Positions 4,101 to 63,854 of a stretch of 64,000 nt of DNA are shown one piece after another. This DNA is from Mytilus trossulus. Taxonomy: Eukaryota. A program made the translations under genes and the position numbers. The first letter of the stretch is position 1. Each line of letters begins with the position of its first letter. The stretch lies in assembly GCF_036588685.1 (NCBI RefSeq), contig NC_086374.1, positions 100,502,001 through 100,566,000 of the forward strand, in the 5' to 3' direction. A model generated the notes under the pieces. The model ran no database searches, was not told the DNA's origin, and worked only from the letters and a program-made list of their open reading frames with translations.

Positions 4101-7100
4101 TTAGAGCTTGACATATGAGTGGTCAATTGTCTATTGTTGGAAACCGTATGTTGACTTTTTGATGTTTTAGTTGGTTGGTTGTTGTAATTTGGCGTCTACC
4201 CCACACCTCATAATAGGTAGAACCTTCAGACTGATACAATATTTAAATGCAGAAGATGGACAAGTCTCCTTTGTTGTCAAATCATACACAACAGCGAAAA
4301 GAAGACTAGATACATTCTTATTGTGAAGTATAAAATTTTGGGGTTTTAAGCATGTTCTGTTTTGAATTGATTATCTATCGGTTTAAGGCGCCTTTTTTGT
4401 CAACTTTTATCGTTTGTTTGGTTGTTACTGAAGACTTACCAAGACTGCTTTATTAACTTGCTTTAGGAACTTTTTGAAAGAAAAATGTGAATTTTCTTGT
4501 ATCGTATACCTTACAAAGCGATCCTTATAAACGAAGGGGAAAAAATATTTGTAAAAAAAAATCACTGCTACACTAAAATATTTGAATCGAGATTAAGTTT
4601 AAAAACACAAAAAACTTTACAGGTTTGCCTAAAATGAGGATTAGTTGTTTAAAATTCTTAAAGGGGATTCTGTTCATCAAACGTTAAGATATTCAAATCA
4701 ACTATTGAGTTGTGTGTTAAAATGCAAATCAATCCATGTATTTCCACCAAGAAAAGCAGACTAACTCATATCATACACATTACCCATTTATTTTATATCA
4801 AATATGAAATTATAACTAACTCCTGTAAAGGCTTTAATTTCATTTTCGTCCGATTCAATGTAAGTAAAATTATCTAGCCGTATAACTTTACAGAATAAAT
4901 AAGAGTAAAATAGATTGTTATTACTTCCTTGGTCGCATTTTAGATTTAGAATGAAATCAAATTGTACCATGATTGAAAAGTTTAATCTTAAATAATATGA
5001 ATTCATTTGATTTTTCAAAACTTTTTTCATTCGGTCACCATGTTTTTAAATCTTTATATTGAATAAGAGAAACAATAGTATATGAATTCCGTCCGAAGTG
5101 CTTTTTCTGGATTTACCATTGTGGCACCATCATGAACCCTTAGAAAGCAAAGGATGTACAATTACCGAAACAGTAGAAAAGCTATGAAACAACAATGCCC
5201 TTTTAAAAGGCAAATCCACTAAATGTCCTTGCCTGAGGGAGTTACAACCTCAGTTTCTTTATGATAAGATTGAAGGACAGCTTTATACTTTTGGGTTTGA
5301 AGTGTACCAATAGAAAATGGGGGACGAATGAAGAGAATCAAAATTAAGAAATAATTAAAAGCGCTTTCATGAAAATTATATTCAAATTCAAATATTTTAT
5401 TGGACAAAGCACATATGATACAATGCGTATTCCAAGATATAATCAATTATATAGTACCTTCTAATGTAACCTCCTTAGTTCAACTTTTAATAATTATTAA
5501 GGAAAGGAAAGAGTATAGGGAAGGGGTCAAATGATATTAAACATTAATTCCGATTATACAATCTTTTATTTTAAAATTATATTTTTCTTGTTAAAGTAAC
5601 TTCTAGCAAATATTGTGGAAATGTACATCGCCAACACGAATTGGTACCTTTAGAGTAGTTCAATTTGCAACTCCAATATGCTTACTTATTCAGTCAAAAC
5701 TTCGAATTGGTTTGCAAAAATATTCAGACTCCCAGGACCTACGTAAAGATATTTGGTTGCGCGGGATCTATTAATTCTTTGTTAAAAGAAAAAGATAACT
5801 ATTAATTCAAGTTTTTTTTAGAAATTTTCTCCTCTGCAAATGCTGTTTTTACAGATTTGAAATTGTACTTTACCTTTCTAAGGATTTAATTTCATACCCT
5901 TCTGATTCAATGTAAGTAAAAACATCTCACCGTATGCCTTTCGAGTAAATCAAAGTAATTATTTTTTACAATTACTTATAACCAGATTTAGACTTAACTC
6001 GACCTGGCATTAACTTGACCCGCAACGGTGATAAACATTACATATCGACAAGTCGATCAATCGACCAATTTCTTAGTTACTAGTAACAATCTTATCAAGC
6101 AAGCTTGCAATTCATCTGTCCTCTCTGAATAATTCCATGAAACATTTCTATATTTTCTATTAACATTATTGTAATTGTTTGTTCTCTCTGGACAATCTGA
6201 CTTCCTCCACCAATGACAACTGACCGCAATGAAATAGCATAGTAGTGCTGAAAGTGGTGTTAAACAACACATAATCAATCAATTAACAATTATCATTTCG
6301 AATCAAGTTAACAACTTGTAATGAACAGTAAACTTGAATTCTTTGATATGAGCCACTTTAAACTTTCTGGGTCTTGAAAAACATTTATGTAACTTCGAAC
6401 AGGGGTTTGTCTTTCTATGAACATTGTATGATAACGTGTATCTGCAATTGTGACTTTTAGCATACAATTTGCTTTAACTGTTTTCAAATTAAATTGACTA
6501 GTTATCATCTTTAATGTTAGTTAGTCAGTATAGCAATAGTACGTCTTCATTGAACTAGTGACTGGTCACAGAAGTACAGAAATTATATAAGATATTAGGC
6601 TTTCTTTGATTAATTCTTGAGTGACAATTTTCTACGTTTCAGTACTTTATTAAAAATTGTGAAAACGGTTATAATCACAGAGAAACATTGTGATCTTTGA
6701 TGAGCTGTCTGAAATATATAACTTTTTGCTTCAAATGTTTAGGAGCCTCGGTCTATACCTCTCTTGTTTAGATCTTTCTGTTATATCTGGACTTCCGTTT
6801 CCTTTGGTTCATCTTTCAACCAACTAGTCTGGACACATTTTGTCTAACTTGTCTTTAAGTAACCATCTGTTTCATGACCATGCGTTTATCTCAATATTTA
6901 AAAAAAAATGAACGTTTCAGCATATACCCGGTATAAGAATGAACACACATCTTAAGTCCTTTGGACAACACAAGACAGACACAACTGAACAAGACAAGGA
7001 AATATTAATAAACAACATACAACTGTTTTCTTGTCTTTGGTCGGGTTGTTGTCTCTTTGATTCAATCCCCATTTCTATTCTCAATCTTTACAATAGAAAA

Positions 7101-9423: not shown

Positions 9424-12400
9424 GTTAGATCTGAATGTCAACCGTTGTATGTTTACTTTTTCGGGATTTCGTTAGATCTGAATGTCAACCGTTGTATGTT
9501 TACTTTTTCGGGATTTCGTTAGATCTGAATGTCATCCGTTATATGTAGGCCACCAGCCAAGATGCTACTCTGCTGGTAAAACTGTAAATCAGATCCAATA
9601 TCCATAATTGCGTATTTTTTGACGTTGTAAAGCAAGAAAAGCCTTCGGCGACAACAAGGAACTTTACTCCTGTACACAATTTTTGCCCATAAATCTGCGA
9701 GATCAAAACTAATGCCCGCATGACAAGTCTTTTCCAATATATTTCTTCGGAATTGACACAAACGCAAGATGAATACAACGGAAAATCATAAAGATTTCGT
9801 AATATTTTTGATTTACTAGGCTAGAATGTATATTGATTGTACAAGAAATGAGAAAAGGAGAAACATATCCAACTATAGCAGTCATCACGTGACTTTTGTG
9901 ACGTCACACATCACCCGTATCAAGCCCAAGTAAATTGTATAGAAATGCATAGGGGCTTTCTGGAATCGATGAAATACATTACTTTAAATTCATGATACTA
10001 AAAGTGTGGGTCTTTGTAGTAATTCCTCATATATTTAGAAATAACAATATTCCTTTTGGAATAGTTTAAATTTTGATCTTCTCCCTTCCAAATGCTTTTG
10101 AAAATTTGTCTTGTTGTCTCGATAGTTCACACTGTTAAATCATACAACTACGATAACTATTGGATTTTCTGTCGTCTTTAGCCTTAAATTGCGATTTAAA
10201 CAAAACAGATGGAATAATTGTGGGTCTTTGTGCTTATTATTATATTCATAAATATTTGAAATATCGTATAAAGAATAGTTTAATTTTCTAGTATGTCCCT
10301 TCCAAATTGATTTGAAAATAAGCTATTTTCAGAAAATCTGCTATTATTTTTCAAGATGGCGACCAGATTGACAGCGTGGGGCGACATGGTAAAAATATAA
10401 TTTGTACGATTTTTACAATGAAAATTAAATAACTGTTGGATGCTCGCGTTTTCAGTCACTGTCTTACCTTAAAGCAGCATGTAATCGAACATTGGTTCCT
10501 TTTTATCAAGCTTAAACATGCTGTTGTTATTTTTATAAAACTTTGAAAAAATGGCGAACAAATAATTTTCAAACGTAGAGGATGTTCGACACTTATTTTG
10601 TTAATGCACATAATTCAATTTATTTTCACTGTTTATATTGCAATTAAATATGACACGTTATTGTAACTATAGGAATAGCCTTAGATATAGCTAGATTAAG
10701 GAGATATTAATTAAGTCATAACATCAACGTGATCAAAGAAAACAAACATGGCACCTAATCACGATGTAAGTTTTGACAATACCCATGTAGATGCATGCTT
10801 TGACAATACCTATGCCGGTTAGTGATGTCCGATTATCAATGAAATTCTTTGCAATATTATTTTATATTCATAAAAGAAGACATCGAATGGATATAAACCG
10901 AGGTGAACTAAATATATTTTTCAATTTTCTTTAAATAATTCATCAGGTAACCAGTAAAAAAATCCTAAATGAACCAGTCACATGCAGAGTTATCGAACGT
11001 AATTATGACTGTAATAGTTGCATATGGCTAGAAAATTGACCACAACATAATATTTATTGACAAATGACTATAAATCATGTACATATGGCGAGGAATGAAT
11101 ATTTAACTGATTGCTGCAACGACGGACAGAATATTGACAATTCAAATTTGTTTTCAATGGCTAGCTTCCCACGTTTTGAAGATCGTTTTGCAGATTTGTT
11201 TGTCTAATTTTAATGAAGTATCCAAACTTATTTATTTTTTAATTGTTGTTCCTGAAAGTTTTACAACCCAAAACAATTTACTTCAAAGTTGCAACAATTA
11301 GTAAGAGTCATATTCATGTTGAAGATTTCGTAGTTTCTTTTCTGTTAAATGTGTAAATATGTTTCTGCAAGTTTAAATTGCCCCAGGTTATGTATTTTTG
11401 AAACATTAGTTTTAAGTTTAATCTTAGAATAAGTCCAAACTTGACTTTTGAGCAATATAGTTTCAACTAATGGATGCCATAATTTTCTAAACTGGAAAAC
11501 GAAGTCGGGATTCAACCGATTTTACGAGCCTGATGAGATCATTGTTATATCTAACTAAGAACTTCAAACAATTTTACTGCGGACAGGTGTGAACAAACAG
11601 GTGTGCTCTAATAGCAGTTTTATGCCTAAGTTTACGAGTAGCTTATTTCGTCAAGTATAATTTTATGTCCCATTCTCGCATATTTCTCACTAGTAACTGT
11701 AATGACCGCCATAATAATTACAATCACTTATGCATTCTTAAGATTAGAAATATGCAAGAATTGGACAACCATTATCTCTAAAATGAATATGTTTTTCGTT
11801 ATTCCTATTATCATCGGAAAAGTACATCAAACTTTATTGCTCGAGTGACCATAAAAAGGACATAAAGGGACTTAATCCGGTCACAATTCCGGTATTTGTA
11901 ATCCAAAAGTAAACAAGTTTGTCATTCCTCGATTTCCATACGTCATGCTTGTGTAATGTTTTGGCATAATTCGACCATTTGTCACCGTCAAAAGTCCGAG
12001 TAACCCACACGTGCAGGTGTGAAAAAGGTCGTTTCTTTCAATAAGGTCAAATAGATAATCTTGAGGAACAAATCTTAAAAATACATTAAAAGAACGGAAG
12101 GTGAAATTTTTAAACTTTCAATCAGGACATTTATAAAACCGTTACTAGTGACTAACCTCGTAGTCTCGTGATATTTTTAATGAAAATGTTAAGATTTTCT
12201 GTGTGTGGGGGAGGTAAAAGAGACAGAAAACATTTATCTTTACACTTCGAGTGACAATTCTTTTTATTTGTGTGTTACAGGCATATTTCATCTACAAATA
12301 TATTGCTTTAGGCATGTAGAATAAAACCAGAACATCCTGAGATACCATTATTTCGAGATGGCCAATGGCCACAAACTTTAGTCTGTCCATTTTCTCAAAT

Positions 12401-23009: not shown

Positions 23010-23166
23010 TTTTGGCTCATTTTGGAATTTTGGGTCCTCAATGCTCTTCTACTTTGTATTTGTTTGGCTTTTTAACTATTTTGATCTGAGCGTCACTGAT
23101 GAGTCTTATGTAGACGAAACGCGCGTCTGGCGTATAAAATTATAATCCTGGTACTTTTGATAACTA
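23010..23166 (+). mobile_element. 157-bp hammerhead-bearing Penelope-derived insertion with 6-bp TSD, nested in another repeat
   Basis: TTGAAA is duplicated at 23004-23009 and 23167-23172. The host repeat (gctttgctcattgttgaa|gccgtacggtgacc) resumes after the insert. Confidence 0.8.
23090..23133 (+). ncRNA. Minimal type I hammerhead ribozyme (Penelope-like-element type), intact core
   Basis: GCGUCA-CUGAUGA-GUCU(uaugu)AGAC-GAAAC-GCGC-GUC^-UGGCGU. Stem I 6 bp, stem II 4 bp, palindromic ACGCGCGU stem/loop III. Predicted cleavage after 23127. Confidence 0.88.
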
Positions 23167-33949: not shown

Positions 33950-35130
33950 AAGATAACAGTAGTATACCGCTGTTTAAAAGTCACAAATCGATTTAGAGAA
34001 AACAAATCCGGGTTATAAACTAATATCGAGGGAAACACATCAATTATAGGAGGAAAAATAAAGGCAACAGTAGTATACCGCTGTTCAATCTCATAAATCC
34101 ATGGACAAAAAACAAAATCGGGGTAACAAACTAAAACCGAGGGAAACGCATTAAACATAAGAGGAGAACAATGACACAACACTGAAATGTAACACGCACA
34201 GAAAAGGACCAAACATCAGACAAAATCCCACGAGAATAACAAATATAACATCAAAACCAAATACATGAATTTGGGATAGACAAGTACCGTGACACGTCTT
34301 ATCGCAATGTGAATTTACACTCAAAAATAAGAGAAAACAAACGACGCAACGTTAAAATGTAACACACACAGAAACGAACAATAATATAACAATGGCCATA
34401 TTCCTGACTTGGTACAGGACATTTTTAAAGGAAAAAATGATAGGGTTGAACCTGGTTTTGTGGCATGCCAAACCTCGCACTTTAATGGCAATGTTAAATA
34501 TAACATTGAAATGACAACATAATATAACAGGACTACAATACAAATAAATAGGAGAACATATTAGACTAAGAAACACATGATTAATAGATAACAAAAAGCA
34601 TCAGGTTTAAAATGCAATACGCCAAAAACGCGCCTCGTCCACACAAGACTAGACGACACAAGACGCCCAGATAAAAATGATCGAAAGTGAAAAAAGTTCA
34701 CAATTGTACAGCACTGAAGATCAAAAGTTGAAAAAGGTTGTGTCAAAAACGGCTATGTTTTTATGCTTGGGATAAGAACAGCCTTATTATTTAGAACAAT
34801 TAATGCTATTGCAAACAGTAAATTTTATCAAATGAATATAAAACAGATATACATAAAGAAACTGAAGTATTAACTAATTTCAGAAAACTAAAACGAAAAC
34901 ATAATGCTAAGACCAACACAGAATAGACACACCCGACACAGTCCAGGCTTCAACGCAATAAATCATAAACATGACGTCACATACGATGGCGGAAAGGCAC
35001 AACAAATACGTCAAATTTGAATTTATGAAATTTCTGAAACAGCATAAAAATGACGTCACAGATGAAAAACTATGATTTAAAAGTAAGATGGAATTAGGAT
35101 AGATTTAAGATTATATTAGAACTAAATAAT
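33950..35130 (-). mobile_element. Composite dispersed repeat (family 4) with duplicated terminus; related copies 32780-33000 and 45235-45398 (opposite orientation)
   Basis: The terminus aaaggcaacagtagtataccgctgttc...aaatcgggg..acaaactaaaaccgagggaaac recurs. The element contains a twister-like fold and a decayed hammerhead. Confidence 0.75.
34390..34493 (-). ncRNA. Twister-like fold, family 4
   Basis: Minus strand: GCCAU(P5)..GUGC-GA-GGU-UUGGCAUGCCA-CAAAACCAGGUU-CAA-CCCU..AUUUUU..AAAAAU-GU-CCUG-U-ACC-AA-GU-CAGG-AAU-AUGGC(P5). P2 and T2 are imperfect. Confidence 0.5.
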
Positions 35131-36105
35131 GATATTACATTTAAACACAATGCATATTGCAATACGTATTAATAACAAAGAAACAACAGAAATACTAAAG
35201 TGCAACAAACACAAAAAACAATGCAACATTCTTAAACACGGACTATTCGATAACAACTACCATATTCTTGACTTGGTATGAACAAACGATTACTTTTTAT
35301 TGCATTCACTGCACAAAGTAAATCACAAAAAATACCGAACTCATCAAACAAATGGAAAATAACTGTCATATACCTGACTTAGTACATGCATTTTCTAATG
35401 TAGAAACAATGGAATAAACTTTGTTTTAAAGATAGCTAAACATCTTACTTGCAAGATAATTTTAAGTAACAGTTGTTCTTAAATATTGTAGGATTGGTGC
35501 TCGGTCAGAACAGGTTCATTTACAACATAACTTACTTATCTCGTCAAAAGTCCATAATTGATAAATATATGAAGGGTTTTATTTATTATTTATAACACTG
35601 TGTCAACAGCACTGCTAGTGGAGTATCTTAACACGCGGGTATCATCAGTCAGTTCCTACGTATTGCAATTATTTATTTTTTAAGTTGCATAGATCTGTTT
35701 CGGTACGCATACATTATTTTTTTCATACATTGAATGGCATTGACTTTTCTGACGATGTAAATTCCACATTTGGACTTACGTATTAAAATTTATTTCTTTT
35801 TTGTCAGAAGGCTTGCACTTGATTTTGATTTTAATAAAACTGCCAGGTTAAATCTATACTAGTACATTGGTCATCTTGATTGAGTGTCTTCGAATTTTAC
35901 AGATATTTACAATCGTTTGATGGTAGGTATTCATTTGAATGGGGAGAAACTGCACACTTTTTAATACTCAGAAAGAAAACCTTTTATGTACTTTGAAATA
36001 ATATTTCGGTATAACCTATATACAACATTTATTCCAAAACAAATAATTACAAAGTTGTTTTATAGCAAGAATATGACTATCAAATTAACAGGCTTATAAT
36101 ATCAT

Positions 36106-36149
36106 ACACACAACGCGCGTTTCGTCTACATACGACTCATCAGTGACGC
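36106..36149 (-). ncRNA. Hammerhead ribozyme copy, core intact but stem I 3' strand damaged
   Basis: Minus strand: GCGUCA-CUGAUGA-GUC(guaugua)GAC-GAAAC-GCGC-GUU-GUGUGU. Confidence 0.72.
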
Positions 36150-38042
36150 TAATATCAAATTAGTTAAGAAAGCCAAACAAGTATGATGTTAAACAGCATC
36201 ATATACCCAATATTTAAAAAAGTGTGTTATTGACACGTTTAATGGTATCGACTGTTTGGTATTTGTTAACAAAAAAACGACATCAATATTGAAGAAACAT
36301 CTACAGTAAGGATAAAGTAAAAACACAAAAAAACTGAACTCCGAGGAAAAGTACGAATGGATAACAACTGTCATATTCTTGACTTGGTACAGGCATTTTC
36401 TAATGTAGAAAATGGTGGATTGAACCTGGTTTCGATATTACCTAAAAACAAATGATTTATAAATTAATAATAAAAGAACATAAATATATGAACGTTCACA
36501 AAAAGTTACTAACTACAGCAAAACGAAATCTTGAACATATAGATATAAATTTCTATTTTAAAAAAAATCGTTTTTTCTCTTGCCTGTCTGATTCAATGCT
36601 CTTCAACGTCATAATTTATTTAGCCTTGATTTTTTTTTCGAGCTTCACGGATGAGTCTTTTGTAGACAAAACACGCGTTAGACATTCGAAATTTTAAGTC
36701 GTGTATCTTTGATAGGTGAACTCACCGATACAGTATGTTACATTCAGCAAGGAAGGCACACAATTGCCCTTACCTATATAAACATTATTTAAACGTATCA
36801 TCATGTAGCATTGCCAGTTGTTTGAAATTGATGACATTTTGTATCTGGCGAACAGCGATAATATGTAAAGGCTATGTTATTTCGAACTTACACCGCATCC
36901 TCCCATAGACTAACTAAGTTTTTAATCCTGCTCTCAGATTTTCTACCCCCATGCATAGATGGACGTAGCAAAAGTAAAATAACAAAATAACAAACACCAA
37001 GAAAATTCAAATATGAAAGCCACTTATTAAATGTCAAAATATAGAGCTCAATCACATCAACCGAATGGAAAATATCTGTCATATTTCTGTCTTGGAACAT
37101 ATATTTTCTTATGATGAAAACAGTTGATTAGACCTGTATTTATAGCTAGCTTAACGTCTCACTTGTATTGGTGTCGCATTGAATTCCTTTATACTGTCAA
37201 GAATGTGTGAGCAAAATAATCCAGACAGAATAGTTAAAAATGTTAAATATAGGGCAATATTGTGTTATAATTTTAAACACCGTAAAACAACCCTATGTCA
37301 GAAAAGAAAAAAAACAAAAGTTCAAATAGATAAAACATATGAGCAAAAATGAATCAGAAGAAAACAAAAAACTACCACAACGCAACTTATTGGTGGAATG
37401 AATAAGTACCGATCATCGCCTAAATGATGTTACCAAAAATGGACAAACAATAAGCAAGACAGACACTTTTTTATACACTTACTTTGCAGTGTTACTCATC
37501 TACTGATTTAAACATTTCTAAGAAGTATTACGTAGATGGAACGAACCTTTTTACGTGCTAAATAATACGACTGGTGTTTGGACGATTTTTGGTACGGAGG
37601 ACGTTAAAACGTCAAACATATATTGGAAATATCTAGTGGCAATTAGATGAGTCTTGGCTTTTATAATGATAAATGGGAGTACATATATAACTTTATCATT
37701 TGAATCAGGAATTTACTCTTATAACTGGAACTCTTTGAGAGGACATTTCAATGTCACTTGGTCAAAGCATCATCGATGAATTCAATTTAAATATGGTTTT
37801 TGGAGAAGATATCTTAAACCATTAACCTTACTTTTGATGGAAGAGACAATCAGTATTGACATAATCTACGGAAATTTAGGATATTAAAAAACTTTTCCGG
37901 GTTTGTTTTCACTCATATCTTATAATATGGTTAGTTTTCTCGTTTTCTTGTTTGAATATTTTTACATTGTCATATCGGTGTCTTTTATAGCAAACTCTGC
38001 GGTATGGGCTTTTCTCATTGTTGAAGGCCATACGGCGACCTA

Positions 38043-40632: not shown

Positions 40633-41759
40633 ATAGCGCCGTTTTTTGCTATGATAAATCTTACATAACAGAATAATCATTTTATTTGGGATTTTACCTA
40701 TTGAGTCCTATTTCAAATTATGACGTTTGACTGTGTTTGGATTAAATCAAGAAGCGTACCATATTGACACAACCTGTCTTGCTTCTTTTGAAGTTCATGT
40801 TATTCCCTGAATCTGTTTCATTGATTTTCTGTTTTAATATATTTTTAAAAAAGAGACTGAACATCGGTTCACTACTGTTAATGAGGAATTTGATGCGACT
40901 GTCATACAAAAGAAGTTTAACTATCTATAAAACCAGGTTTAATACACCATTTTCTACATAGAAGAAAATGTTTGTATCAAGTCAGGAATATACAATTGTT
41001 ATCCATTTATTTGATGTGTTTGAGCTTTTCGTTTTGCCATTTGGTTAGAGCCTTTCTGTTTTGAATTTTTAAAATTTTTATTGGTTTCATTAGCGCAGTC
41101 TTTAGATTTCCATGAAGTTATTTGTAGCATTTTGTTTGACCTTCGTCGTACTCCACATTTTGTCATGTCATTATCTGCTTTTGCTTGTCCCTGAGTATCT
41201 TTCTTGGTAACAAAAATACATTTAGTGAAGCTATTTACGTCACTCTTGACGATATCTGTGTACGGATTAGAATTTTGGAGGATGAAAGATCACAGCTAAA
41301 TAACTTTATCTGTATTCCATATTAAAAACATCACAAGAACTTTTCAAATATTTAAGCCTGAAACTATCAAACTAAAACCGTCTCTCTAGATGCAAAAAAA
41401 ATATCGAGCACTATAATAATCAGAAACTAGAGACTAATTGGTCAGATCCTACGGAGAGAGAAAAATGACGATACTCCATTTGACCAAAGAAGGTAAACGA
41501 ACGGAAGGAATGTCTAGAATAGCACGGAGACGAACTGTAGAGGCAGAAGTAATGGCAGCATCAACGAACATCGGGCATTCTAAATAAAATTACTAACAAC
41601 CGACAAAAGAAGAAGGAAAGTAATTAAGACAATTGTGTTGTTCTCTATTTCAATGGTCGCACTAATTTTCCTTACATGCCTGAGGCAATAATGTAGGTGT
41701 AATTTCAGAATACATCATCACAGGTTATTTTGGTTGTAATCGGTATGATGGTGATTGAG

Positions 41760-43142: not shown

Positions 43143-43186
43143 GCGTCAATGATGAGTCTTATGTAGACGAAACGCGCGTCTGGCGT
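43143..43186 (+). ncRNA. Hammerhead ribozyme copy with C3A core mutation (AUGAUGA)
   Basis: Otherwise identical to 23090-23133. Confidence 0.8.
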
Positions 43187-46100
43187 ACTAAATTATAATC
43201 CTGGTACCTTTGATAACTAATTAAACAAATGGAGCAGCCTATTTCATAATTGATAGACACGAAAGACATACAACCAATTCATCAAAATAATCTTTATTAT
43301 CTATACATATTGTAATAGGTTTTTTTTACTTTCTGTAAAAAATCAAGTCTCAGATCTCCATTTTTTAGTGGGTTGCATTCTCGTTTTTTTGCACTTTAGG
43401 TTTTTCTGTAGTTTCGTTGTTTTCCTCATCTATTTTATATTTATATATATAGGGGTTCATGTTGCAATGAAGTCATTTTGTTACAAACGTGCAAATTTTA
43501 CATTTATTTGTCTAGTTTTGCATTGAAGGGGATTGCTAACCAAATTGAATAAATGGGTATCTAAAAGACAAGATTTAGTTTAACTTTCTACTTAATGTTG
43601 GTTTTTGTTAAGATTTGAGCATCTGTTAATGTTTGAAATACACAAATACTTTTAATTAGCTTACTTATTTTTATGCCAGGAGGCAAGTAGCAAACATTTT
43701 TTTGGGGTCCAATACAAGCTCGAAATAAAGATATGATAAATTTCACGCGTCCGAGGCGTTTTATTTCTATTTACCTTTATCATGAACGTTCAAAGCCAAA
43801 TTTGTTTAGGAACCGAAACAGTTGAAGAGCCAAATAAATAAAGGAACCTAAACATTGCCAAATCCATCTTGGATACCCTCTGAAACTGATATTACACAAG
43901 CAGAGGTATCGACACAGTGATGTAAATAATGCAAACAACACTTTAAAAAATTCATTTGTCAACTATGAATCAGCATACCAACAGCATCAAAACCTCCAAA
44001 AGCTCATTTTTGCCCCAGCAATAACATGCTTAGTTTTGAATAAGAAAAGAGGCAGACAACACTTATTATTTAAATAATGACAATACTCCCGCAATATGAC
44101 ATTATAGGTGGATGATAAGCATGTGGTAAAATTGTTCACTAACAGCAACACCATACTAATGTTATTACGAAAAATTTTTAATTTTGTTTGGAAAGCATAA
44201 AAAAGTTTAGCGATAAAATCAAAAATTGCTTACATAACGTAATGGCTGTCCTAAGTTAGGACTATACTAATTGTTTGTCCATTCGTTTGATGTGTTTAAG
44301 CTTTTGATTTTAGCATTTGATTACAACGTTTCCGTTTTGAATTTGCCTCGGAGCTCAATATTTTTGGGATTTTACTTTTTCAAAAATATTTTTATTGGTT
44401 TCATTTAGCGCAGTCTTTAAATTTCTATGTAGTTATTTGTGGCATTTTGTTTGACCTTATATTTTGTCATGTCATTATCTGCTTTTGCTTGTCCCTGAGT
44501 ATCTTTCTTGGTAACAAAAATACATTTAGGGAAGCTATTAACGTCACTAGTGACGATATTTGTGAATGGATTAGAATTTTGGAGGATGAAAGATCACGGC
44601 TAAACATACTTTATCTGTATTCCATATTAAAACATCATAATGATAAAGGATTTTCCAATATGATTTTTGTTGGAGATCGGTTTTTGTGTTATTTTACTTT
44701 TACAATAAACACAAATATTTGTGGAGGTAAATTTAGATTCAGGTAGTTGCAGTCTTATTTTGCGTGCAATTAAATGATACTACCAAAAAATATTAAACGA
44801 AACGAATTGAAAGTTGATCAGTAAGTATTTTGTGATCGTAAAGTGTTTGATAATTAAAAGATTTGAGGCCATTTATTGGAAATGCAGCTCCATTTACGAT
44901 AGTTGTAAATTGTAATTATCATTTTCAGTAATGCTTGCTTTTCTTCTCAATTGTAATATTAAAAGAAGAAAGTTAAAGGTGTTTCATTTCGAATTACGTA
45001 AACATCAAGACGAAATTACCTAACATACAACCACATTTAAAGATTATTTTAAAAATAACTTCAAAGTACTTTATTTAGAAAGTATTTTATCAAATATTTT
45101 GCTTACATTTGTCTTTTATCTCGTTATCTATGTCGTGTTTTCCAGGTATGAGTTTTTAATTTTAAAGGTTTATTCAGTCCTATGGTATCCTATGAATTAT
45201 ATGTTATATTTTTTTATCCTCGTGGTGTTTTGGCTGTTGTTTGGTCCGTTTCTGTGTGTGTTGCGTTTCGGTGTTGTGTCGTTGTTCTCCTCTTATATTT
45301 AATGCGTTTCCCTCGGTTTTAGTTTGTTATCCCGATTTTGTTTTTTGTCAATGGATTTATGAGTTTTGAACAGCGGTATACTACTGTTGCCTTTATTTGT
45401 AGACAAAACGCGGGCCTGGCTAACAATATTGTAAGCTTGCGTTTTATGGTGAGAATACTACCAATAAGTTCAAAACTATCCCATAAAACTAATATAAAAA
45501 AATTCCTAAAACAACTCTTCATGCCACATTCTGCCGTCTGATATTACACAATTTCTGTTTATTTACATCTTTTCCAAAATAATATATATAACGATAGAAA
45601 AATATCCAATAAATATTTAAATATTTTTTATTTCTCAACTTTCCGTGTAATATTTAAATCGCCCATATGTTTTATTTTTTGCGCCCCTTTTCATGTTGAA
45701 ACTCCGTTTGTTTTCAATACTAACCTTATCATCATAGTGTATAAATATGAAATGTTAATTATGTATATTTTAGAAATAATAATGTTGTTACATGATTGAC
45801 AATTTTTATATTCAACATCTTACAAAAGGAAATGCATATTCTCGAAATTTATTAAAATGTCAAAAATATTGTCATAGATACTACAGATATTAAAATGACG
45901 ATCGTCAATATGGAGAAAAGTGGCGTCACAAAAGAAAGCGTATTTTGAGAAATGGAAATTCATTATTCTGTCATAAATGGAAATTACTTTTTGTTTACTT
46001 TTCTTGAATTTTTATTTTCAATAAATTTACCATTCCATAATAAAATGACATATTACACCATACAACAATAGTTATTATTTGTTTTTAAGTATATATTTGA

Positions 46101-47907: not shown

Positions 47908-48180
47908 GTGACCTACCGAATAAGACTATTTACCGGATTTGTAATCTCTTAAGCAACACGAAGGGTGCCACATGTGGAGCAGGATATGCTTATCCTTCCG
48001 GAGCACCTGAGATCACCCCTAGTTTTTGGTGGGGTTCGTGTTGTTTATTCTTTAGTTTTCTATGTTGTGTCATGTGTAGTATTGTTTTTATGTGTGTTTT
48101 TTTCAATTTTAGCCATGGCGTTGTCAGTTTGTTTTAGATTTATGAGTTTGACTGTCCCTTTGGTATCTTTCGTCCCTCTT
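47908..48180 (+). repeat. Dispersed repeat (gtgccacatgtggagcagga...gagcacctgagatcacccc...), probably Penelope-related 3' region; inverted copies 54695-54918, decayed at ~50190-50340 and 53285-53408
   Basis: Direct comparison of the copies within the window. Confidence 0.7.
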
Positions 48181-52285: not shown

Positions 52286-53955
52286 TTTCAATACTCCCAA
52301 AAAACTTACAAGGGAATATGAACAAACGGAGAAATCCTAACTTTATAGACACCAAATAATAGAAACTCCTGAAATCTAATTTATTTCATTTTTTAGTAAA
52401 AGTTCAATGTTAAAAAGCCAATCGTGTTAAATAGAGGGGTTGGTATATAAATTTAGTAATATACAATTATATAGTCGTAATTTATGAGTAGATTAAGACA
52501 CCTTAACTGGTGTACTTTACTAAGAATCTATAAAACACTAACTTACGACATGTCTGGAAGAACTACTTAGGTCCAATATATGTCCTAAATGGTCTTAGGA
52601 CATGTCCTTATCATAAAAAGTGCTTCGATATTAATAACACTAATAATTATTGTTTATAATTTTCAGTAGTTGTTTTTACCTGTTCACATCGACATTATTC
52701 TGAATCGTCTGAAAAACTAATGAACAGTTCTGAATTGACTGCAAGCGAATAATCTGAATAAAACCTAGTTTACTGCAGTAGATAGCCTTCATAAACTCAT
52801 CATATATACCAGGATTAAAGTGTATGCTCTTTCCGACTACAAAAGACTCATTAATGACGCAAAATTGAATAGGCAAAGGCCACATAAAGAGCGAATTCTC
52901 GAATTTGAAGAGCATTTAGGAACCGAATAGGTTTTGTTTAATACAGCTAATGTAATATATATCTGGGGGTAAAAAAAAAATAATAAGAATTTAGAAAATT
53001 GTCTGGAATACTGAAGATGACTGAAAAATGTATTGATAACCTTTCCAGATGTTGAAGATAAAAATTACCGTTTAAATCAAAATTGGTTTACTAGTGTAAT
53101 GATTGAATTCAAACGTTGTTTTCGTTTTGTCTTCGCACTTACAGTTGATGCAAAAAAAGACAGATATATAGAAAATGAAATCAAAAGGACAGTAATATAA
53201 AATAGCCAGTGGTTGAGGTACTTAGAACATTCCTTGTCCAAAAGGGAAAAAAAAAATATAACATAAGTAAACAAAAAAATGTATTTAAACTAAGAAGTGG
53301 TGAAATGTACCGAAGGGACATTTAAACTTATAAGTCGAAATTAAAACTGACTACATGGCAAAATTAAAACAAAATCAACAATACACACAGCAGTTTACAA
53401 AACACAACCTGGATCTCTCTCTCCCTCTCTCTCTCTCTTGTGTCTCGTTCACTCTCCTTTCCTCTTTTTCTTCGTCTTCCATCGTGTTACGATCACTTGT
53501 ATCGTCCACTTACCTTATTATTGAGATCATTCACAATATCCCTTTTACGCCTACACACAACTTTGTTCGCTCACTCTCTCATTTGTTCGTCCCCTTCTTT
53601 ACATACTCTCGTTTATATGGACTAAAACTCGGTCGCTCACCATCTCCCTCGATAAACACGTATTCACCTCTCCTAGTGAATTCTCAATTCACTTCCCTGT
53701 AAATCATGTTAATCCTACCATGTGTCTTTCAGGGTAATGATTCGGTCCCAATACTTAAAATGATTCAATCCTTTATGGGTGGAATTTACATAGCTATATA
53801 ATTCGTACAATAAAATTAAGCAATAAATGAGGTTTTTAAATTTTAGTGCTACTTTGTTACAGTTGTTTGTTTTTATAGTAATGAAGAGGATTTTTTTAGA
53901 TGTGTACCTGTTGTGTCTTTGTTTTGGTCACGCATCGTTGTCAATTAAAGTTGAT

Positions 53956-54047
53956 GCGACTTTCATACAAGTGAGAGGTTTAGCTAGCTATAAAACCAGG
54001 TTTAATCAACCATTTACTACATTAGAAAATGTCTGTACCAAGTCAGG
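53956..54047 (+). ncRNA. Twister-like fold, family 3; T1 ACC/GGU, T2 AC/GU; P5 3' strand decayed
   Basis: GUGA-GA-GGU-UUAGCUAGCUA-UAAAACCAGGUU-UAA-UCA-AC-C...G-UCUG-U-ACC-AA-GU-CAGG. Confidence 0.55.
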
Positions 54048-57000
54048 ATTAAGGAATTTGATATCCATTCGTTTGATGTTTTTGAGCTTTTGAATTTTCC
54101 ATTTGATTAGAGACTTTCCGTTTTTAATTTTCCTCTACTTCTTGTTTTCTAATCCCACGGTTAATTGCGGTTTGTATTAGGAATACCAATATCCCCATTC
54201 GGCAGTGAAGGACCCTGCTAAATAAGAATTCTGTTTGATTTTATGGGATGTATCATTGTTTTAAAAAGACTGTCTTTTGTTTTGTTTCATTTTTAGGTTA
54301 TTGTCTAATTGATATATACGGTACATTTCTTTAAGAAATAGCTAATTGCAAAACACGTCTAAATTCCATAGGTATAAGAAGATGTGATTGAGTGCCAATG
54401 AGACAACTAATTATCCAAGACACAATGTTGTAAAATTGTGAACAATTATAAGTCAAAGTGCGGCCTTCGATCACATTAAAGAATAGACGCAAAAACATCT
54501 GATTAATTTCGGATCAACTGTTTTGTTGCGACATATCTTACTCTCTACACATTACGATTTTTTTCTGAAAATGGCAGTAAGAATTGTTAATCTGACTTTT
54601 ATTGCATCCTTTTAGACCCTACAAACTCTTATACATTGTGTACATGATAATTAAGAAACTATTTGCTAAATGTGTCACAAACAGCATATGTAAGAGAAAA
54701 AAGGGGCGAAAATACCAGAGGGACAGTCAAACTCAAAGATCGACAGCAAACTGACAGCGCCAAGGCTAAAAATAAAACAGACAAATAAAAGTACATATGA
54801 CACAACATAGAAAATTAAAGACTAAGCAACACAAATCCAACCAAAATCTTGTGGTGATCTCAGGTGTTCTGAAAGGGTGAGCAGATCCTGCTCCACCTAT
54901 GGCATCCGTCGTGTAGCGCATATCAAATGCAATTTGTCGTTATAAATTATGAACTAGGGATATCCTGTTATTGCCGAATGGTTTAGGCAACAACGTTTTT
55001 TAAAGAGTTTGCCCAAGATGTAAAAAGTCGGGCGTAAAAGACAATTATAGCCTCCTCGTTGATATTCAACGAATCATTGGGTTAAAACGACTTTTTTTGG
55101 GTTAAACGAAACATTAATTGACATTTTTTGCTACAGGTGCATCCAAGATTTCACTTAATTTGACTAATTACAGTAAGACAATACTTGCTTTAAAAAATGC
55201 TTACTATTCCAGAGTATGTCCTAGTGTACTAAGTTTTATGAATGTCCTGTGTTTTAGTTATTTGTATTGAATTAGTTTGTATTAAAAGTCAACTAACTAG
55301 TGTTAGTACTATTGAACAGATATAAGGGTTATCTCTCCTTGACATAAAATCAGTACAAAAGCAGTACTTGCACAGCCAAAAACACACATAAAAGCAAAGG
55401 AATACGTCTTTTTTTTCCTAGTATATGTGGCCTTCAAAATGGAACAAAAATACATCTTAAATCAATGCCACTTTAATATGGCCCTTAGCACCGGTTTGAG
55501 CGGAATTCTTTGCAAAATAATTTTGTTTAATCTGTGAAATCTTGCAAAGCCATATCATGCCCGTCAATAAAATCATACTGGAAATCGGTACATATTTCAA
55601 ACAAAATAGGTGTAAAAATTAAACCAAGTAGAACAAATTTTGGCTATAAGACATCTTCAGAAAAGACATTTATCAAGTATGAAAACACGTATGGAAAAGA
55701 AGGTTCAATGAAGGTGATACATTTGAAATACATATCAAATATAAGAGATTGTTTGTTTTTAATTAATAACAGGTTAAACCATTATATGTCTCATTATACT
55801 TAAGACTATATTTTATAAGAGTCATTATGCTCGAAGAAAGAAAGCTTTTATATTATCAACTTTGTAACGAAAAAGACATAAGACTTATGGTGAAGAGGTT
55901 GTCATCTCAGACAGCAAGTCGAACATAAGACTTCATAAGAGATAATGGCTGAAACATAGAAAGGCAAATGACTTTTTCTATCACTTTTTATACTGTCAAA
56001 CTCAATGAATTGATGTTGTACCTCTAGTATAATGTCTCCCTCCACTTCTCAAAGCATATTGTTTCTATTCTGTCCTCTTGACCCTGAAATGCAGAAACTT
56101 AACCTCTTAAAATATAACAGTCAATTTCACTAATGCATCCAATGTGACAAAGGAATATCTTTTAACATGAAATAATTGGTGCAACATTTCTTAATTAAGC
56201 TTTGTTAAACACCTCTTGAAGACTACGTAGTGACTCACATGCTTTCATTACGCGACTCCTCAGTAACTTTCGGAAATCGAAAAAATTCAATAAATTTGAT
56301 CCCTGTAGAGTCATAAATCTCTAAGACGTATCCGGAATTTAATCAACATGAATAGCATCAGAAACTTGCTTTTCTTTGATGTCAGTATTGATATAGCTCG
56401 TATAAATCACCAGTACGGAAACTATTGCAATCCACCCGATCAAATAACGATTACGTTGTAGTATTTACACGATAGAACGTAGCTAATCTAGGCTGGATTT
56501 GTAAAGGTCTGCACATATATATAACCTTGAAGTAAGGAACATTTAAGCAGGATTTGTCGATTTTACCTGATTTTAATATAGATGGTAGCGGGGATCATGT
56601 TTTTATCTAAATTGAATGTGTTTCATGATTTAAAAAAACCTTAAACGGAATGAATGAAATTAATTAATGATTTGGGAACTTTAAAGACAATACTTAGAAA
56701 AGACAGACGACATGTCATATGTAATTAATACATATAATTGTATATACACGAACTCAGATTAGATCAAGATAACAGAAAAAAATAAATGTAGTCCGGTATT
56801 TTTTACCGTCACACAGAAGTAACAGAAATAATTTCACATCACAAATAAAAATGGCAGAGTTGTCATTATCAATCTACAACGAAAAATCAATGTCAATGGC
56901 AGTTTAATTCAGATATCTGAATTGTGTGTACATAAAAATTGTACAAATCGGATTGTTACTTCCTCATTGTAACTCAAAAATAATTAAGCGTATATACAAA

Positions 57001-59117: not shown

Positions 59118-61774
59118 CGAACTATTAAAATCAGTTGAAAAAGGCTTGACGTGTCGTTTGTAAAAAAAAATAATGAAAATCAAAAAGGGCATACTTCTGA
59201 AGCTCTATCCTTCTCGAGCTATCTTTATATTTAGATAATATTAATCTTGTATAGTAAGATTCCTATAACAAATAACAGCACAGCTTATCTAATTATATTG
59301 TTAGAAGAAACCAAGTCAAAATGACGTATTCACTGGTTACGATACACACAAAAAAAGACACCAGTAGAATAAGTTCGTTTCGGAAAAAAATCTTATTTAC
59401 AATCACGGAATATTCTTCTGTAACGGTCTTTGTAAGTGGTGGTTGTTAAAGAGTTTAGAATTTCATTTTTATTTTGCTTTAAGTTTGTTATGATTAAGAG
59501 GGAACATTGGCAGATTTTATAGCTGAAAGGTGACAGTTTTATACCCTTTTCTTTGGCATGTTGTAATTACTGATCCACAACAAGAGATTTGAAAATCATG
59601 TTATCCTGTTTTGTAAGGAAGTATATGTCAATTATGGAGTTTACTAATCAGGCTAGTCTTGTACGAGCTGTCATTTTGAAGTCTTATCGTTGATCAAATT
59701 ATGCTTTGACTGGCGAAGGAATTATTTTTTATACAATCATACTATAACGGCAATAAAGCTGCTCACTGTGAAATAAACCGCGATTTTTGTTCACAATATA
59801 AAATACATAAAATTCAAAATTTTCTGACTTTGAAATTAAACACAGATGTTGGTTTTATGTTCTACATGACATGCGATTTTATTAGATTTGTCATGACACT
59901 GTAACGTTTTTTTTTCTGTCACATACTTCAGATTTTATGCCGCTGTTATTATAATTTTCTGTCTGGGGTCAATTTCAATTTTGTTTCAGCAAACTGTAAT
60001 GTTCTTATATAAGGGTCGATGTTAAAATGTATCGCCAAACTTTACGGTGCTTATCCGAAACTAGATATATTATTTGTTTGAAGGTGAATGACTAGAATTG
60101 GCGTTGATGCATAACATACAATAAAAACACATCGTCGTCGTCACCATCGTTATCGTCGCCACCAACTTCTTTTGTTTTGTGTTTTCATCATCCCCACCCT
60201 CATCTCAAATTTACACAGAAACATCATCAAATCATCGTCGTTTTCGTCATCGTCATCATCATTGAACAAGGATTTGCAAAATGTCTGTATCTTCCTCGGC
60301 TATCCGTCCTCATACACGGTTACTTATTGTCTGCATGTTGTTGGTTTTTGGTCAAACGCAGCTCATCTCCAAACAGAAAATTTCTTATGACCTAAGAAGG
60401 AATAGTAATATTACAGAATGACCTTTCTTGTGATACAATTCAACTCGAGTCAAATAAATGTCAAAAGATTTTTTTGTAAACAATCGATTTATTGCAGCGA
60501 ACGCAATGGCGCAATTTTAGACCCCATTTAAATATAACATTCAATTTGATTTGTTCAGTTTAATTTCAAATTAAAGATACGCTCTAATTAAGTTTTAAAT
60601 TGACGGAAATGGTCGTAAAATTTTAAAGAAAAGTTGATCTTGTAAATAACACTGTTTTCGACATCTGATAATGTAGTTCACACCAGTATATTATACTTAA
60701 ATGATAATAAAACCATCAAAACAGACGAACTTTAATATTAACCCTTTCCTAACGTGTAATTTGCATAATTGTAAACCACGGAATGTCGAGGCTAAATCCG
60801 ATGCGAGTCTGATGGTTACAATACCGCTGTACAAATACTTAGAGTCAGGCAAAATAGATTCATGTAATGAAAATTAAAAGTAGTTCACTAAATATACAAT
60901 ACAAAATTATATTAAGAACCACAGCTACATGCATTAGAAAAACAACGTTTAAGGATCGAATTTGAAAACATTATTTTCCAAATTGTTTCTGAATATTGAA
61001 CTGGTTTTAAAGTGATTGAAGCAGAACAATTCGACCCATTTCTTAATGCGTGTCCAAAATAGTGCATACAAGGCTCTTAATCACCTGTTAACAATGAACG
61101 TATTCTAAACTTACAAAACACATGCTTGTTTTAAATTCGCTTAAATGAAAATGGGAATTTTACGATTTTCGGAAAATAAACATGCAGTAAAAAATTAATA
61201 ACTGCCATCATATTCAAGCACTTAATAGCCACGTTAGAGATTTTATTCAAATTTTGACATTTACAGCTCATAAGAAATTGAGGTAAAGAAACAAGATACA
61301 AGTAGTGAGAAAAATTTAAACAATTGTTGGCTCTTAAAATTTGAAGTTTTATGTTTTAGTTGTTTTTTAATAGTCTTCCCGCCATTTGATCTCTCCCTAT
61401 TCATCTGAAGATATAAGCTATTTTGTTGGTATATCTGTTTCAGTATATTTGTTTGTTATTATTTATGTCGGTTTTACTGTCTCAAATGTTATTATTTTGA
61501 TTTATAAACTTATTTTTCAACAATTTTATGATTATGGTTTATTTAGGTAACTGTATTTCAACGTGTTGCATTATATCCACGAAATAATACATCTTAATAA
61601 ACAAAGCACTAAGTGACTGGAAGTTCTTACGTTTGAGGAAACAGTGTTGTTTTAATGGTTTTTGGACGAATTTTGTCAAGATGGTTTAGAAAAACACCAA
61701 ACACTATCAATTTGCATCAACTTTAAACTTTTCGAAAAGCACAAATATTTGAGCATGTACATAAGGAGCAGGTA

Positions 61775-62345
61775 AAAAGTAAAATCACAAAAATACTGAA
61801 CTCAGAGGAAAATCAATTTGGAAAGTCCATAATCACATGGCAAAATCAAAAAACAAAACGCATCAAAAACGAATGGACAAGAACTGTCATATTCCTGACT
61901 TGGTACAGGCATTTTCAAATGTAGAAAATGGTGGATTAAACCTGGTTCTATAGCGCTAACCCTCTCACTTTAATAACAGTCTCATCAAATTCCGTTACAT
62001 TTACATGATGCGTTAAATAAACAGTCACAATCAATAAAATAGTCAAAATATGGGAACATCAGTCATCATCGTATAACATTTTAACAGGACACAACAACAT
62101 CTACTATCTACGAACACTTGGATTGATTCGAGTGTCTGACGTCAGAAAAATTATATACGTCACATAAATTTGTCGTTCAATGTGCATACAATAGTTATCA
62201 AAAGTACCTGGATTATAAACAATTTTAAATTTTACATAGGCAATGAGCGCAGACAGGGTTAAAAAATCAAAAGTATGTAAGAATAAATTACAGAAATCAA
62301 ACTAGTCCAAAAGTTATACATAGAATTTATGAGAATCCAAAACTT
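61775..62345 (-). mobile_element. Abundant dispersed repeat family 3 (best copy); other copies at ~21355-21430, 35310-35455, 36315-36432, 36970-37400, 40885-41070, 44275-44385, 47020-47245, 53945-54135
   Basis: Shared block aaaagtaaaatcacaaaaatactgaactc...aactgtcatattcctgacttggtacaggcattttc...aatggtggattaaacctgg, seen repeatedly in both orientations. Confidence 0.85.
61882..61981 (-). ncRNA. Twister-like fold, family 3 (with P3 and P5)
   Basis: Minus strand: GACUGUUAU(P5)..GUGA-GA-GGG-UUAGCGCUA..AACCAGGUU-UAA-UCC-AC-C-AUUUUC..GAAAAU(P3)-G-CCUG-U-ACC-AA-GU-CAGG-AAU-AUGACAGUU(P5). Confidence 0.6.
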
Positions 62346-62692
62346 TTAAAAGGAACAATTTAACCTGCGGTCGTGATTTTGAACAGTTAGACCGCAGTTA
62401 TCAATTCCCTTTGAATCGTCTAGACTTAATTTTGAATTTATCACCAGAATAGAAATCAACTAATTATGCCAAGAAGTATGAAAAACAAAAAAAACTGGTG
62501 CTTAGTTAGATTTTAATATTTTAGAGGTAAAATAGAACTTTCACTGTGCAATTTCGATTTCACAGAAAAAATGTTTTTGTACAAAAACTGATTATGTGCT
62601 CGAAGGTAAGGCTCAAAGATATTGAGCGCAATTAAATCTTCATTATGTTAGGGTCTTTGACATATTCCCAGTTTTTCATTCTTAGTTTTATG

Positions 62693-63524: not shown

Positions 63525-63854
63525 TCAATAAAATTCGAAAGGAAATTGGGAATGTGTCAAAGCGACAACAACCCGACAATAGAGCAGACAACAACCGAAG
63601 GCCACCAATGGGTCTTAAATGTAGTGAGAAAATCCCGCACCCGGAAGCCTCTTTCAGCTGGCCCCTTAAAATATGTATACTAGTTCAGTGATAATGGACG
63701 TCATACTACACTCCGAATTATACACCAGAAACTAACATTAAAAATCTTACAAGACTAACAAAGTCCAGAGGCTCCTGACTTGGGACAGGCGAAAAAATTG
63801 CGACGAGGTTACACATGTTTATGAGATCTCAACCCTCCCCCTATACCTCTAGCC
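63525..63854 (-). mobile_element. Dispersed SINE-like repeat (family 1) carrying the twister-like fold
   Basis: A related tail (gtcgggttgttgtctctttga...cccatttctattctcaat) also occurs at ~7030-7090 in the opposite orientation. Confidence 0.65.
63763..63854 (-). ncRNA. Twister-like ribozyme fold, P5-type permutation (family 1)
   Basis: Minus strand: GGCUAGAGG(P5)-UAUA-GGGG(P2)-GA-GGG(T1)-UUGAGAUCUCAUAAACAUGUG-U^AA-CCUC(P2)-GU(T2)-C...G-CCUG(P4)-U-CCC(T1)-AA-GU(T2)-CAGG(P4)-AG-CCUCUGGAC(P5). This maps residue for residue onto the twister core UAA-P2-GCC...GCCGGUCCCAAGCCCGG...GGAGGG. Confidence 0.7.

Follow-up and report, generated by a model that had tools for sequence, protein, structure and literature searches.

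The window, by which is meant the whole 64,000-nucleotide stretch of Mytilus trossulus DNA that was analysed (NC_086374.1, positions 100,502,001 to 100,566,000), contains a series of 3' ends of Naiad Penelope-like elements (PLEs), and a twister fold is read in it on the plus strand at 53971-54047 and on the minus strand at three other places. The features, in window positions, are as follows.

53918..54135, plus strand: 5'-truncated 3' end (3' UTR/pseudo-LTR, pLTR) of a family-A Naiad, 83% identical to the 3' end at locus L226, where a Naiad ORF lies upstream
53971..53979, plus strand: P2 3' strand (53971-53974), G-A with the predicted general-base G (53975) and T1 3' strand GGU (53977-53979), whose pairing with L4 ACC covaries across families
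53981..53990, plus strand: palindrome 1, UAGCUAGCUA, in the P1 slot; self-duplex -14.0 kcal/mol, hairpin 0.0
53993..54003, plus strand: palindrome 2, AAACC-A-GGUUU; self-duplex -8.6 kcal/mol
54003..54004, plus strand: predicted U^A cleavage site, from the twister consensus
54006..54047, plus strand: P2 5' strand, T2 (AC), P3 hairpin, P4 and L4 (UACCAAGU)
63527..63854, minus strand: 3' end of a family-B (selenoprotein) Naiad, 85% identical to the L061 unit, which has an ORF and a SECIS; twister 63774-63841, palindrome 1 63822-63831, palindrome 2 63811-63820 (one mismatch), predicted cut 63811^63810
61772..62364, minus strand: family-C 3' end, its downstream part matching the published Naiad_Mgal; twister 61894-61968, palindrome 1 61951-61958, palindrome 2 61938-61948, predicted cut 61938^61937
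34056..34907, minus strand: 3' end of a family-D Naiad, 89% identical to the L153 unit, which bears a DKA/GIY-YIG ORF; twister 34403-34480, palindrome 1 34461-34470, palindrome 2 34448-34458, predicted cut 34448^34447
40878..41069, plus strand: decayed family-A copy
36353..36432, minus strand: family-A copy truncated just upstream of palindrome 2
35329..35456, minus strand: decayed family-A copy
36970..37276, minus strand: decayed family-A copy, with the palindrome core AGCTAGCT at 37144-37151
44241..44380, plus strand: short 3' fragment with a decayed P4/L4 as its sole remnant

A preliminary description of this DNA had placed four palindromes inside a twister-like fold, and all four do sit in one common RNA fold, the copy around 53975 on the plus strand and the other three on the minus strand. 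The positions given there for three of the palindromes (53981-53990, 61951-61958 and 34461-34470) are exact, and the fourth, UGAGAUCUCA, lies at 63822-63831 rather than 63823-63832. The strands run in the order P2', G-A, T1' (GGU/GGG), a linker of 21-24 nt, N^AA, P2, T2, a P3 hairpin and P4 closing L4. The resemblance to a twister is borne out by compensatory changes in T1, T2, P2 and P4. Pairing was tallied over 12 real copies that represent the families, were chosen with the GA, N^AA and AAG motifs and had their pairs parsed by script. The T1 core pairs are formed in 23 of 24 cells, with a double change from G-C to A-U in family H and a further covariation from G-C to U-A; T2 is likewise paired in 23 of 24 cells, in the versions GC/GU, AC/GU and CC/GG; and P4, which closes an L4 of the form U-N-C-Y-A-A-G-N, is paired in 46 of 48 cells as CCUG/CAGG, CCCG/CGGG or ACCG/CGGU, with compensatory versions also present in published consensi. 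P2 occurs as CCCC/GGGG and GCAC/GUGC, the latter contributed by the clam consensi, which are also the source of the T2 version CC/GG (Scon and Mmer) and of the P4 version ACCG/CGGU. The Naiad motif is thus a predicted type-P5 twister fold with a P3 hairpin.

P2 comprises 4 bp in families B, E and H and in Scon and Mmer, and 1-2 of 3 pairs in families A, C, D and F; it is weakest in the young, ORF-intact D subfamily, where 1 of 3 pairs forms and the palindrome is 8 nt long. The weaker stems, together with the very slow cleavage of PLE hammerheads in vitro in the experiments drawn on here (PMC4209133), would suit a fold that is kept as a structure or protein-binding site and either no longer cleaves or needs the help of a protein. 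Three-pair P2 stems are, however, frequent in microbial P5 twisters, and the twisters tested in the portion of PMC11662667 used here tolerate flaws in P2. Both pseudoknots covary, and all 12 representatives (selected with these motifs), as well as 5 published mussel/clam consensi, retain the G-A preceding T1', the N^AA and the AAG of L4, which makes a non-cleaving fold improbable. An alternative P2 register (CAC/GUG) in families A, C and D was rejected, since Bpla and Mphi do not conserve it and T2 would be lost.

Rfam scans did not call the motif in the window or in the fetched copies, and a search of the whole genome with RF02684 gave 0 matches, a null that says little because the control genomes were equally silent. 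A weak Rfam Twister-P5 match lies at window positions 11840-11892 on the plus strand (21.4 bits, E 4.4); it has a different P4/L4 and no clear palindrome, and may be a chance match or the decayed remains of another element's twister.

In the 1.3-Gb genome the 16-nt P4/L4 word is matched exactly at 32,357 sites and its reversed control at 0; a variant of the word contributes another 6,127 exact matches. The copies have fixed 3' ends, 130-360 nt beyond P4, and ragged 5' ends. Tandem copies of family B have a 4,016-nt unit with a 1,002-aa ORF that contains an N-terminal GIY-YIG, a DKA motif and 5 in-frame UGA codons, and the family-B 3' UTR has a SECIS match of 32.8 bits (gathering score 35). The family-D unit, with a longer 3' UTR, measures 4,760 nt. 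ORF-bearing copies were examined for families A, B, D, E and H, not C or F, and the twister of families A, D, E and H likewise lies downstream of Naiad-type ORFs. The DKA motif is present in the Naiad-type ORFs of the fetched loci, and GIY-YIG lies N-terminal to the RT in the ORFs of L061 and L222, inspected by eye, and of L153, where a motif search was used; a Pfam search of the ORF end gave no domain match. The twister therefore sits in the 3' UTR/pLTR of Naiad PLEs, a host that the preliminary description had not named. Readings of the repeats as retrozymes, SINEs, Helitrons or RTE-type elements with a 5'-end ribozyme were rejected, given the fixed 3' and ragged 5' ends, the retention of both ribozyme halves and the Naiad ORFs upstream.

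The tandem context that dimerisation requires, as foreseen in the preliminary description, is present: two twisters about 4-4.8 kb apart flank complete elements. A twister-bearing pLTR lies immediately upstream of the B body in all 9 stretches that extend as far as its start; there were 12 B stretches in all, 7 of them picked for tandem spacing, and the other 3 of the 12 hold one truncated copy each. A family-A triple at L189 was rejected as a Naiad tandem, having no sense ORF and being part of a larger 4.2-kb repeat. At L222:3014-3490 a family-H element starts shortly past a B-type 3' end and so has an upstream twister with a non-matching palindrome, an arrangement that may reflect a chance neighbour or a template switch. 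Satellite arrays elsewhere consist of the P4/L4 hairpin and 10-25 downstream bases and lack the ribozyme's 5' half (L140 G000:C1:1155500-1159500; L212-L215).

The family A/C 3' end agrees with the published Naiad_Mgal when compared by eye, and the motif of the copy at 53918..54135 is the same as that at the Naiad_Mgal 3' end. The twister fold is present, unannotated, in five published Naiad consensi (Mgal, Bpla, Mphi, Scon and Mmer), read by eye in a survey of 21 of about 54 Naiad 3' ends where motifs interrupted by a line break of the supplement may be missed. The sections of PMC8557442 drawn on here report Naiads without canonical hammerheads, and the word 'twister' is absent from its supplement. 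In-frame UGA stands at cysteine positions in two mussel-type Naiad families, B and H, with the SECIS match in B (L061:5265-8273 and 4309-4373; L222:3491-6418); selenoprotein Naiads are confined to two clams and two spiders in the table of PMC8557442 consulted here.

The linker between T1' and the predicted cut is occupied by two self-complementary blocks, of which palindrome 1 starts 1-2 nt past T1' (GGU/GGG), 1 nt past it in the four window copies, and palindrome 2 ends at the nucleotide immediately 5' of the cut. The second near-palindrome that had been described after the first was recovered as AAACC-A-GGUUU at 53993-54003 and as AAACAUGUGU at 63811-63820, the latter one change off its family's usual AAACAUGUUU. 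A perfect palindrome of at least 8 nt lies within the first 14 nt of the linker in 127 of 150 parsed copies (drawn from 231 collected by P4/L4), compared with 4.4% of random 14-mers from the window. Copies within one family are not independent, so the real test is between families, and the palindromes pass it. Palindromicity that failed to persist across families had been set beforehand as the outcome that would speak against the proposal; the first palindrome takes 14 different sequences, and its self-complementarity is kept in them. Ten forms occur in the genome (UGAGAUCUCA, UGGGAUCCCG, UGAGCGCUCA, UAGCUAGCUA, UGGCUAGCCA, UGGCAUGCCA, UAGCGCUA, UGGGCCCA, UGGAUCCA and UGGUACCA) and four more in published consensi (UGGCGCCG, UGAUGCAUCA, UGGAGCGCUCCA and GGUGCGCACC). 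The 14 versions are 8-12 nt long, and 2 of them, from family E and Naiad_Bpla, contain a G-U pair that keeps RNA pairing and breaks the DNA dyad. Palindrome 2, 8-11 nt long, varies yet stays self-complementary (AAACAUGUUU, AAACGUUU, AACC-A-GGUU, AAUC-U-GAUU and AAACCGGUUU).

In the 12 representative copies the inner four pairs of palindrome 1 are formed in 48 of 48 cells, and the innermost pair shows all four Watson-Crick types. The centre of the family-H palindrome, with 30 flanking bases held fixed, reads GC in 55, AU in 37, UA in 6, GU in 1 and AC in 1 of the first 100 of 2,927 matches, tallied by hand; B-like copies with two strong central bases (n=40) read CG in 38, GG in 2 and GC or CC in 0; and the centres of families D and F are AU and UA, respectively. 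These counts amount to about four double changes, not hundreds, because the copies are amplified masters. Adjacent central bases cannot pair inside a hairpin, suggesting that the pairing is between two molecules, and the G-U forms point to pairing at the level of RNA rather than DNA. A reading of the palindromes as two intramolecular hairpins was rejected, given the covariation of neighbouring central bases and hairpin energies close to 0.

Template switching is able to perfect near-palindromes, and the palindromes might instead be a feature of the DNA, either a dyad bound by a protein or a side effect of such template-switch correction as the element is replicated or reverse-transcribed. Each subfamily stems from one master copy, so only a few such events are involved. 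The sequence, however, changes completely over the 14 versions and the lengths of 8-12 nt, which a protein site does not allow; the G-U versions persist; and the arms are only 4-6 bp, with flanking near-symmetric bases left uncorrected. An origin at the DNA level is accordingly very improbable, and it is highly likely that the palindromes serve RNA-RNA pairing.

The preliminary description held that no canonical P1 can form, which agrees with the absence of any contiguous P1 (0 bp) in 11 of the 11 linker types seen at least 2 times. Across 151 parsed linkers from the 231 Naiad copies, the remainder of which are truncated or decayed, the linker hairpin has a median energy of 0.0 and a minimum of -2.8 kcal/mol, whereas the self-duplexes of the 11 common linker types lie between -12.5 and -19.2 kcal/mol. 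As a control, 141 microbial P5 loci were reduced by a P2 and T2 filter to 92 distinct ones; a linker hairpin is present in 92 of 92 and reaches -7.8 kcal/mol or lower in 91 of 92, a value reached by 0 of the 151 Naiad linkers. The microbial set is higher in G+C, which widens the energy gap without explaining the zero pairs. A palindrome of at least 8 nt is present in 12 of the 92 microbial twisters. In microbial contigs it is common for at least two P5 twisters to lie on one strand at a spacing of 0.3-3.5 kb, as though they bounded a small unit (L251/L252, L258/L259, L289/L290, L298/L299, L303/L304 and L312/L313).

A second conserved, non-twister fold, here called motif X, lies about 200 nt past the ORF of another Naiad-type family (window; loci L231-L250). 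In the window it occurs at 47942-48050 on the plus strand, with its palindrome at 47968-47977, and again at about 54840-54930 on the minus strand. The motif X palindrome is 10 nt long and reads CCACAUGUGG or, in a G-U form, CCGCAUGUGG. The motif X pattern has 6,150 matches in the genome, and motif X with other palindromes is present in 6 of the 21 published 3' ends viewed (CGi, Sglo, Olur, Tgra, Pmar and Naiad-1_Skow). It has no Rfam match and is possibly a candidate new ribozyme class. The window also holds minimal hammerheads of type I whose stem III is the palindrome CGCGCG, a kind typical of canonical PLEs, at 23090-23133 and 43143-43186 on the plus strand and at 36112-36143 on the minus strand.

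A missing P1 does not by itself force a dimer, because P1-less twisters cleave at a near wild-type rate in the assays drawn on from PMC5408937, and P1 is reported as dispensable also in the corresponding part of PMC11662667. Given that palindromes also lie within the different fold of motif X, dimerisation may serve retrotransposition and not catalysis: the palindromes would then act as a pairing signal much as a retroviral dimer-initiation site does, keeping the two pLTRs or two RNAs joined for template jumping, end joining or packaging, and the twister would cut as a P1-less monomer regardless. The published Naiad_Mgal, in which the upstream part is of family A and the downstream part of family C, would fit template switching. 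The two palindromes, however, match the P1 slot exactly, from 1-2 nt past T1' up to the cleavage-site U, and we consider a pairing signal separate from cleavage rather unlikely.

We lean towards the reading that the palindromes pair two ribozyme copies and that this pairing would switch on putative twister cleavage. The linker of a lone copy would form no internal helix, and the T1 strand (GG/AG-UU) would mispair, either with palindrome 2 or at the U^AA site, so that the many solo copies transcribed as part of host RNAs would stay mostly quiet. Where one transcript spans two pLTRs, or two RNAs share a particle, palindrome 1 would pair with 1' and palindrome 2 with 2', and the partner strand, running from palindrome 1 into palindrome 2, would splint the T1 end to the cleavage-site U in place of P1. 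A transcript through two pLTRs would supply the partner in cis, and once both sites were cut, an RNA of one unit (4,016 nt in family B) would be set free with its ends held together. The same principle has been put forward for the minimal hammerheads of other PLEs, where another ribozyme is used.

Predicted secondary structures, whose energies ignore both pseudoknots, agree in part with this scheme of dimer-activated cleavage. In monomer folds the T1 strand pairs with palindrome 2 (families A and D) or with the cleavage site (B and C), and in the ensembles the T1 GG is mostly paired; in 6 of 11 linker types the probability of being unpaired is at most 0.06 for each of the two G. Pairing of the T1 G is lower in E, young D and H, where the monomer misfold is weak or absent (penalty 0-2.2 kcal/mol). 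In 7 of 11 linker types the predicted cleavage-competent dimer has the lowest energy of the forms compared, by a rough sum in which the second duplex was added by hand, since cofolding handles one duplex, and loop costs and pseudoknots were ignored.

Tentatively, and with less confidence than in the pairing of two copies as such, this scheme may be extended to a twister that is an obligate dimer. Its two palindromes, each of about one helical turn, would build a symmetric bridge of two helices and so restore P1 in trans. Such a ribozyme would in effect count copies: it would be silent in the tens of thousands of solo copies, cut only complete tandem transcripts and hold their ends for circularisation. 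In Naiads, other folds would have taken the place of the PLE hammerhead at least 2 times, once the twister and once motif X, with control by a dimer retained each time.

Four raw-read RNA runs, perhaps of related species, were mapped on family B, whose copies are old and mixed, with about 9-11% of mapped reads at least 99% alike. Read depth across the site is several hundred per orientation. No pile-up of read starts at A7 (L061:4614) appears among the 17 of 20 begin/end places listed, for which standard libraries are a poor test; its absence is what a fold that no longer cleaves would also leave. The ratio of sense to antisense depth upstream and downstream of the cut is 0.77/0.87, 0.79/0.80, 0.86/0.81 and 1.02/1.20, with no consistent change across the cut in the 4 runs. 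This near-equality is unlike what efficient cutting of solo copies would produce and counts against monomer cutting, weakly so with old, mixed copies and runs perhaps of related species. The read pattern fits quiet solo copies and a dead ribozyme equally and gives no positive sign of cleavage. The family-B ORF (L061:4899-8260) is covered by transcript reads at low depth, and in run X22 one orientation outnumbers the other; a few reads span the junction of pLTR and body. A read joint from 8260 to 4250 was rejected as a circle, being merely the unit's own continuation.

Naiads dominate many bivalve genomes and have been described as hammerhead-free, a puzzle that a predicted twister in the same place would answer. 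A twister in the Naiad pLTR suggests that self-cleavage of the pLTR is part of PLE replication and not a passenger. If the dimer reading is true, a twister that requires a partner would be new for its class, none having been found in the literature searched; two unrelated ribozymes would have converged on gating by a dimer; the requirement would explain how the genome tolerates more than 38,000 ribozyme cores; and the natural orthogonal palindrome pairs would offer a programmable RNA AND-gate.

A literature search, with most subscription papers outside it, found no paper on Naiads and twisters or on twister ribozymes of bivalve retrotransposons, and by title and abstract none on palindrome-paired twisters under the terms twister, palindromic and dimer. 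A 2026 preprint linking retrozymes to PLEs has no match for 'twister' or 'palindrom', and 'palindrom' and 'dimer' are absent from PMC8501958. The type-P5 twister and the Naiad clade were already known; the covarying palindromes in the P1 slot of the Naiad twister are new here.

The motif shares with the type-P5 twister (Rfam RF02684, clan CL00120) the order P2'-GA-T1'-[P1 slot]-N^AA-P2-T2-P4/L4, the conserved G-A, AA and L4, both pseudoknots and a P2 of 3 or 4 pairs. It differs in that the P1 slot, a hairpin in 92 of 92 microbial twisters, holds two palindromes and no helix, in its P3 hairpin and in the silence of Rfam. Its host elements resemble the Naiad clade of Craig et al. 2021, as described in the sections of PMC8557442 drawn on, in the N-terminal GIY-YIG, the DKA motif, Sec codons with a SECIS, 5' truncation, partial tandems that form a pLTR, a body of 3.4-4.4 kb and a very high copy number.

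The minimal hammerheads of PLEs are inactive as monomers and weakly active as dimers in the experiments drawn on from Cervera and de la Pena 2014 (PMC4209133; review PMC6765202). Like the Naiad motif, they lie in the pLTR of tandem PLEs and have self-complementary sequence in place of a helix adjacent to the core. They belong to another ribozyme class, however, with one loop of 2-6 nt against the two Naiad palindromes of 8-12 and 8-11 nt; their helix III is essential, whereas the replaced P1 of the Naiad twister is not known to be; and cleavage as a dimer, inferred for the Naiad twister, has for them been proposed or weakly shown. Retroelement twisters known from the parts of PMC8501958 and PMC7761336 used here are 5'-terminal and belong to RTE elements. 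The T-variant twisters of the Schistosoma mansoni RTE Perere-3 (Liu et al. 2021, PMC8501958) likewise combine a defective P1 with a non-LTR retroelement; in the account given there, they lie at the 5' end, obtain P1 from the target site and belong to copies that start at the cut, whereas the Naiad motif is of type P5, lies near the 3' end, has both halves encoded by the element and conserves its P1 slot.
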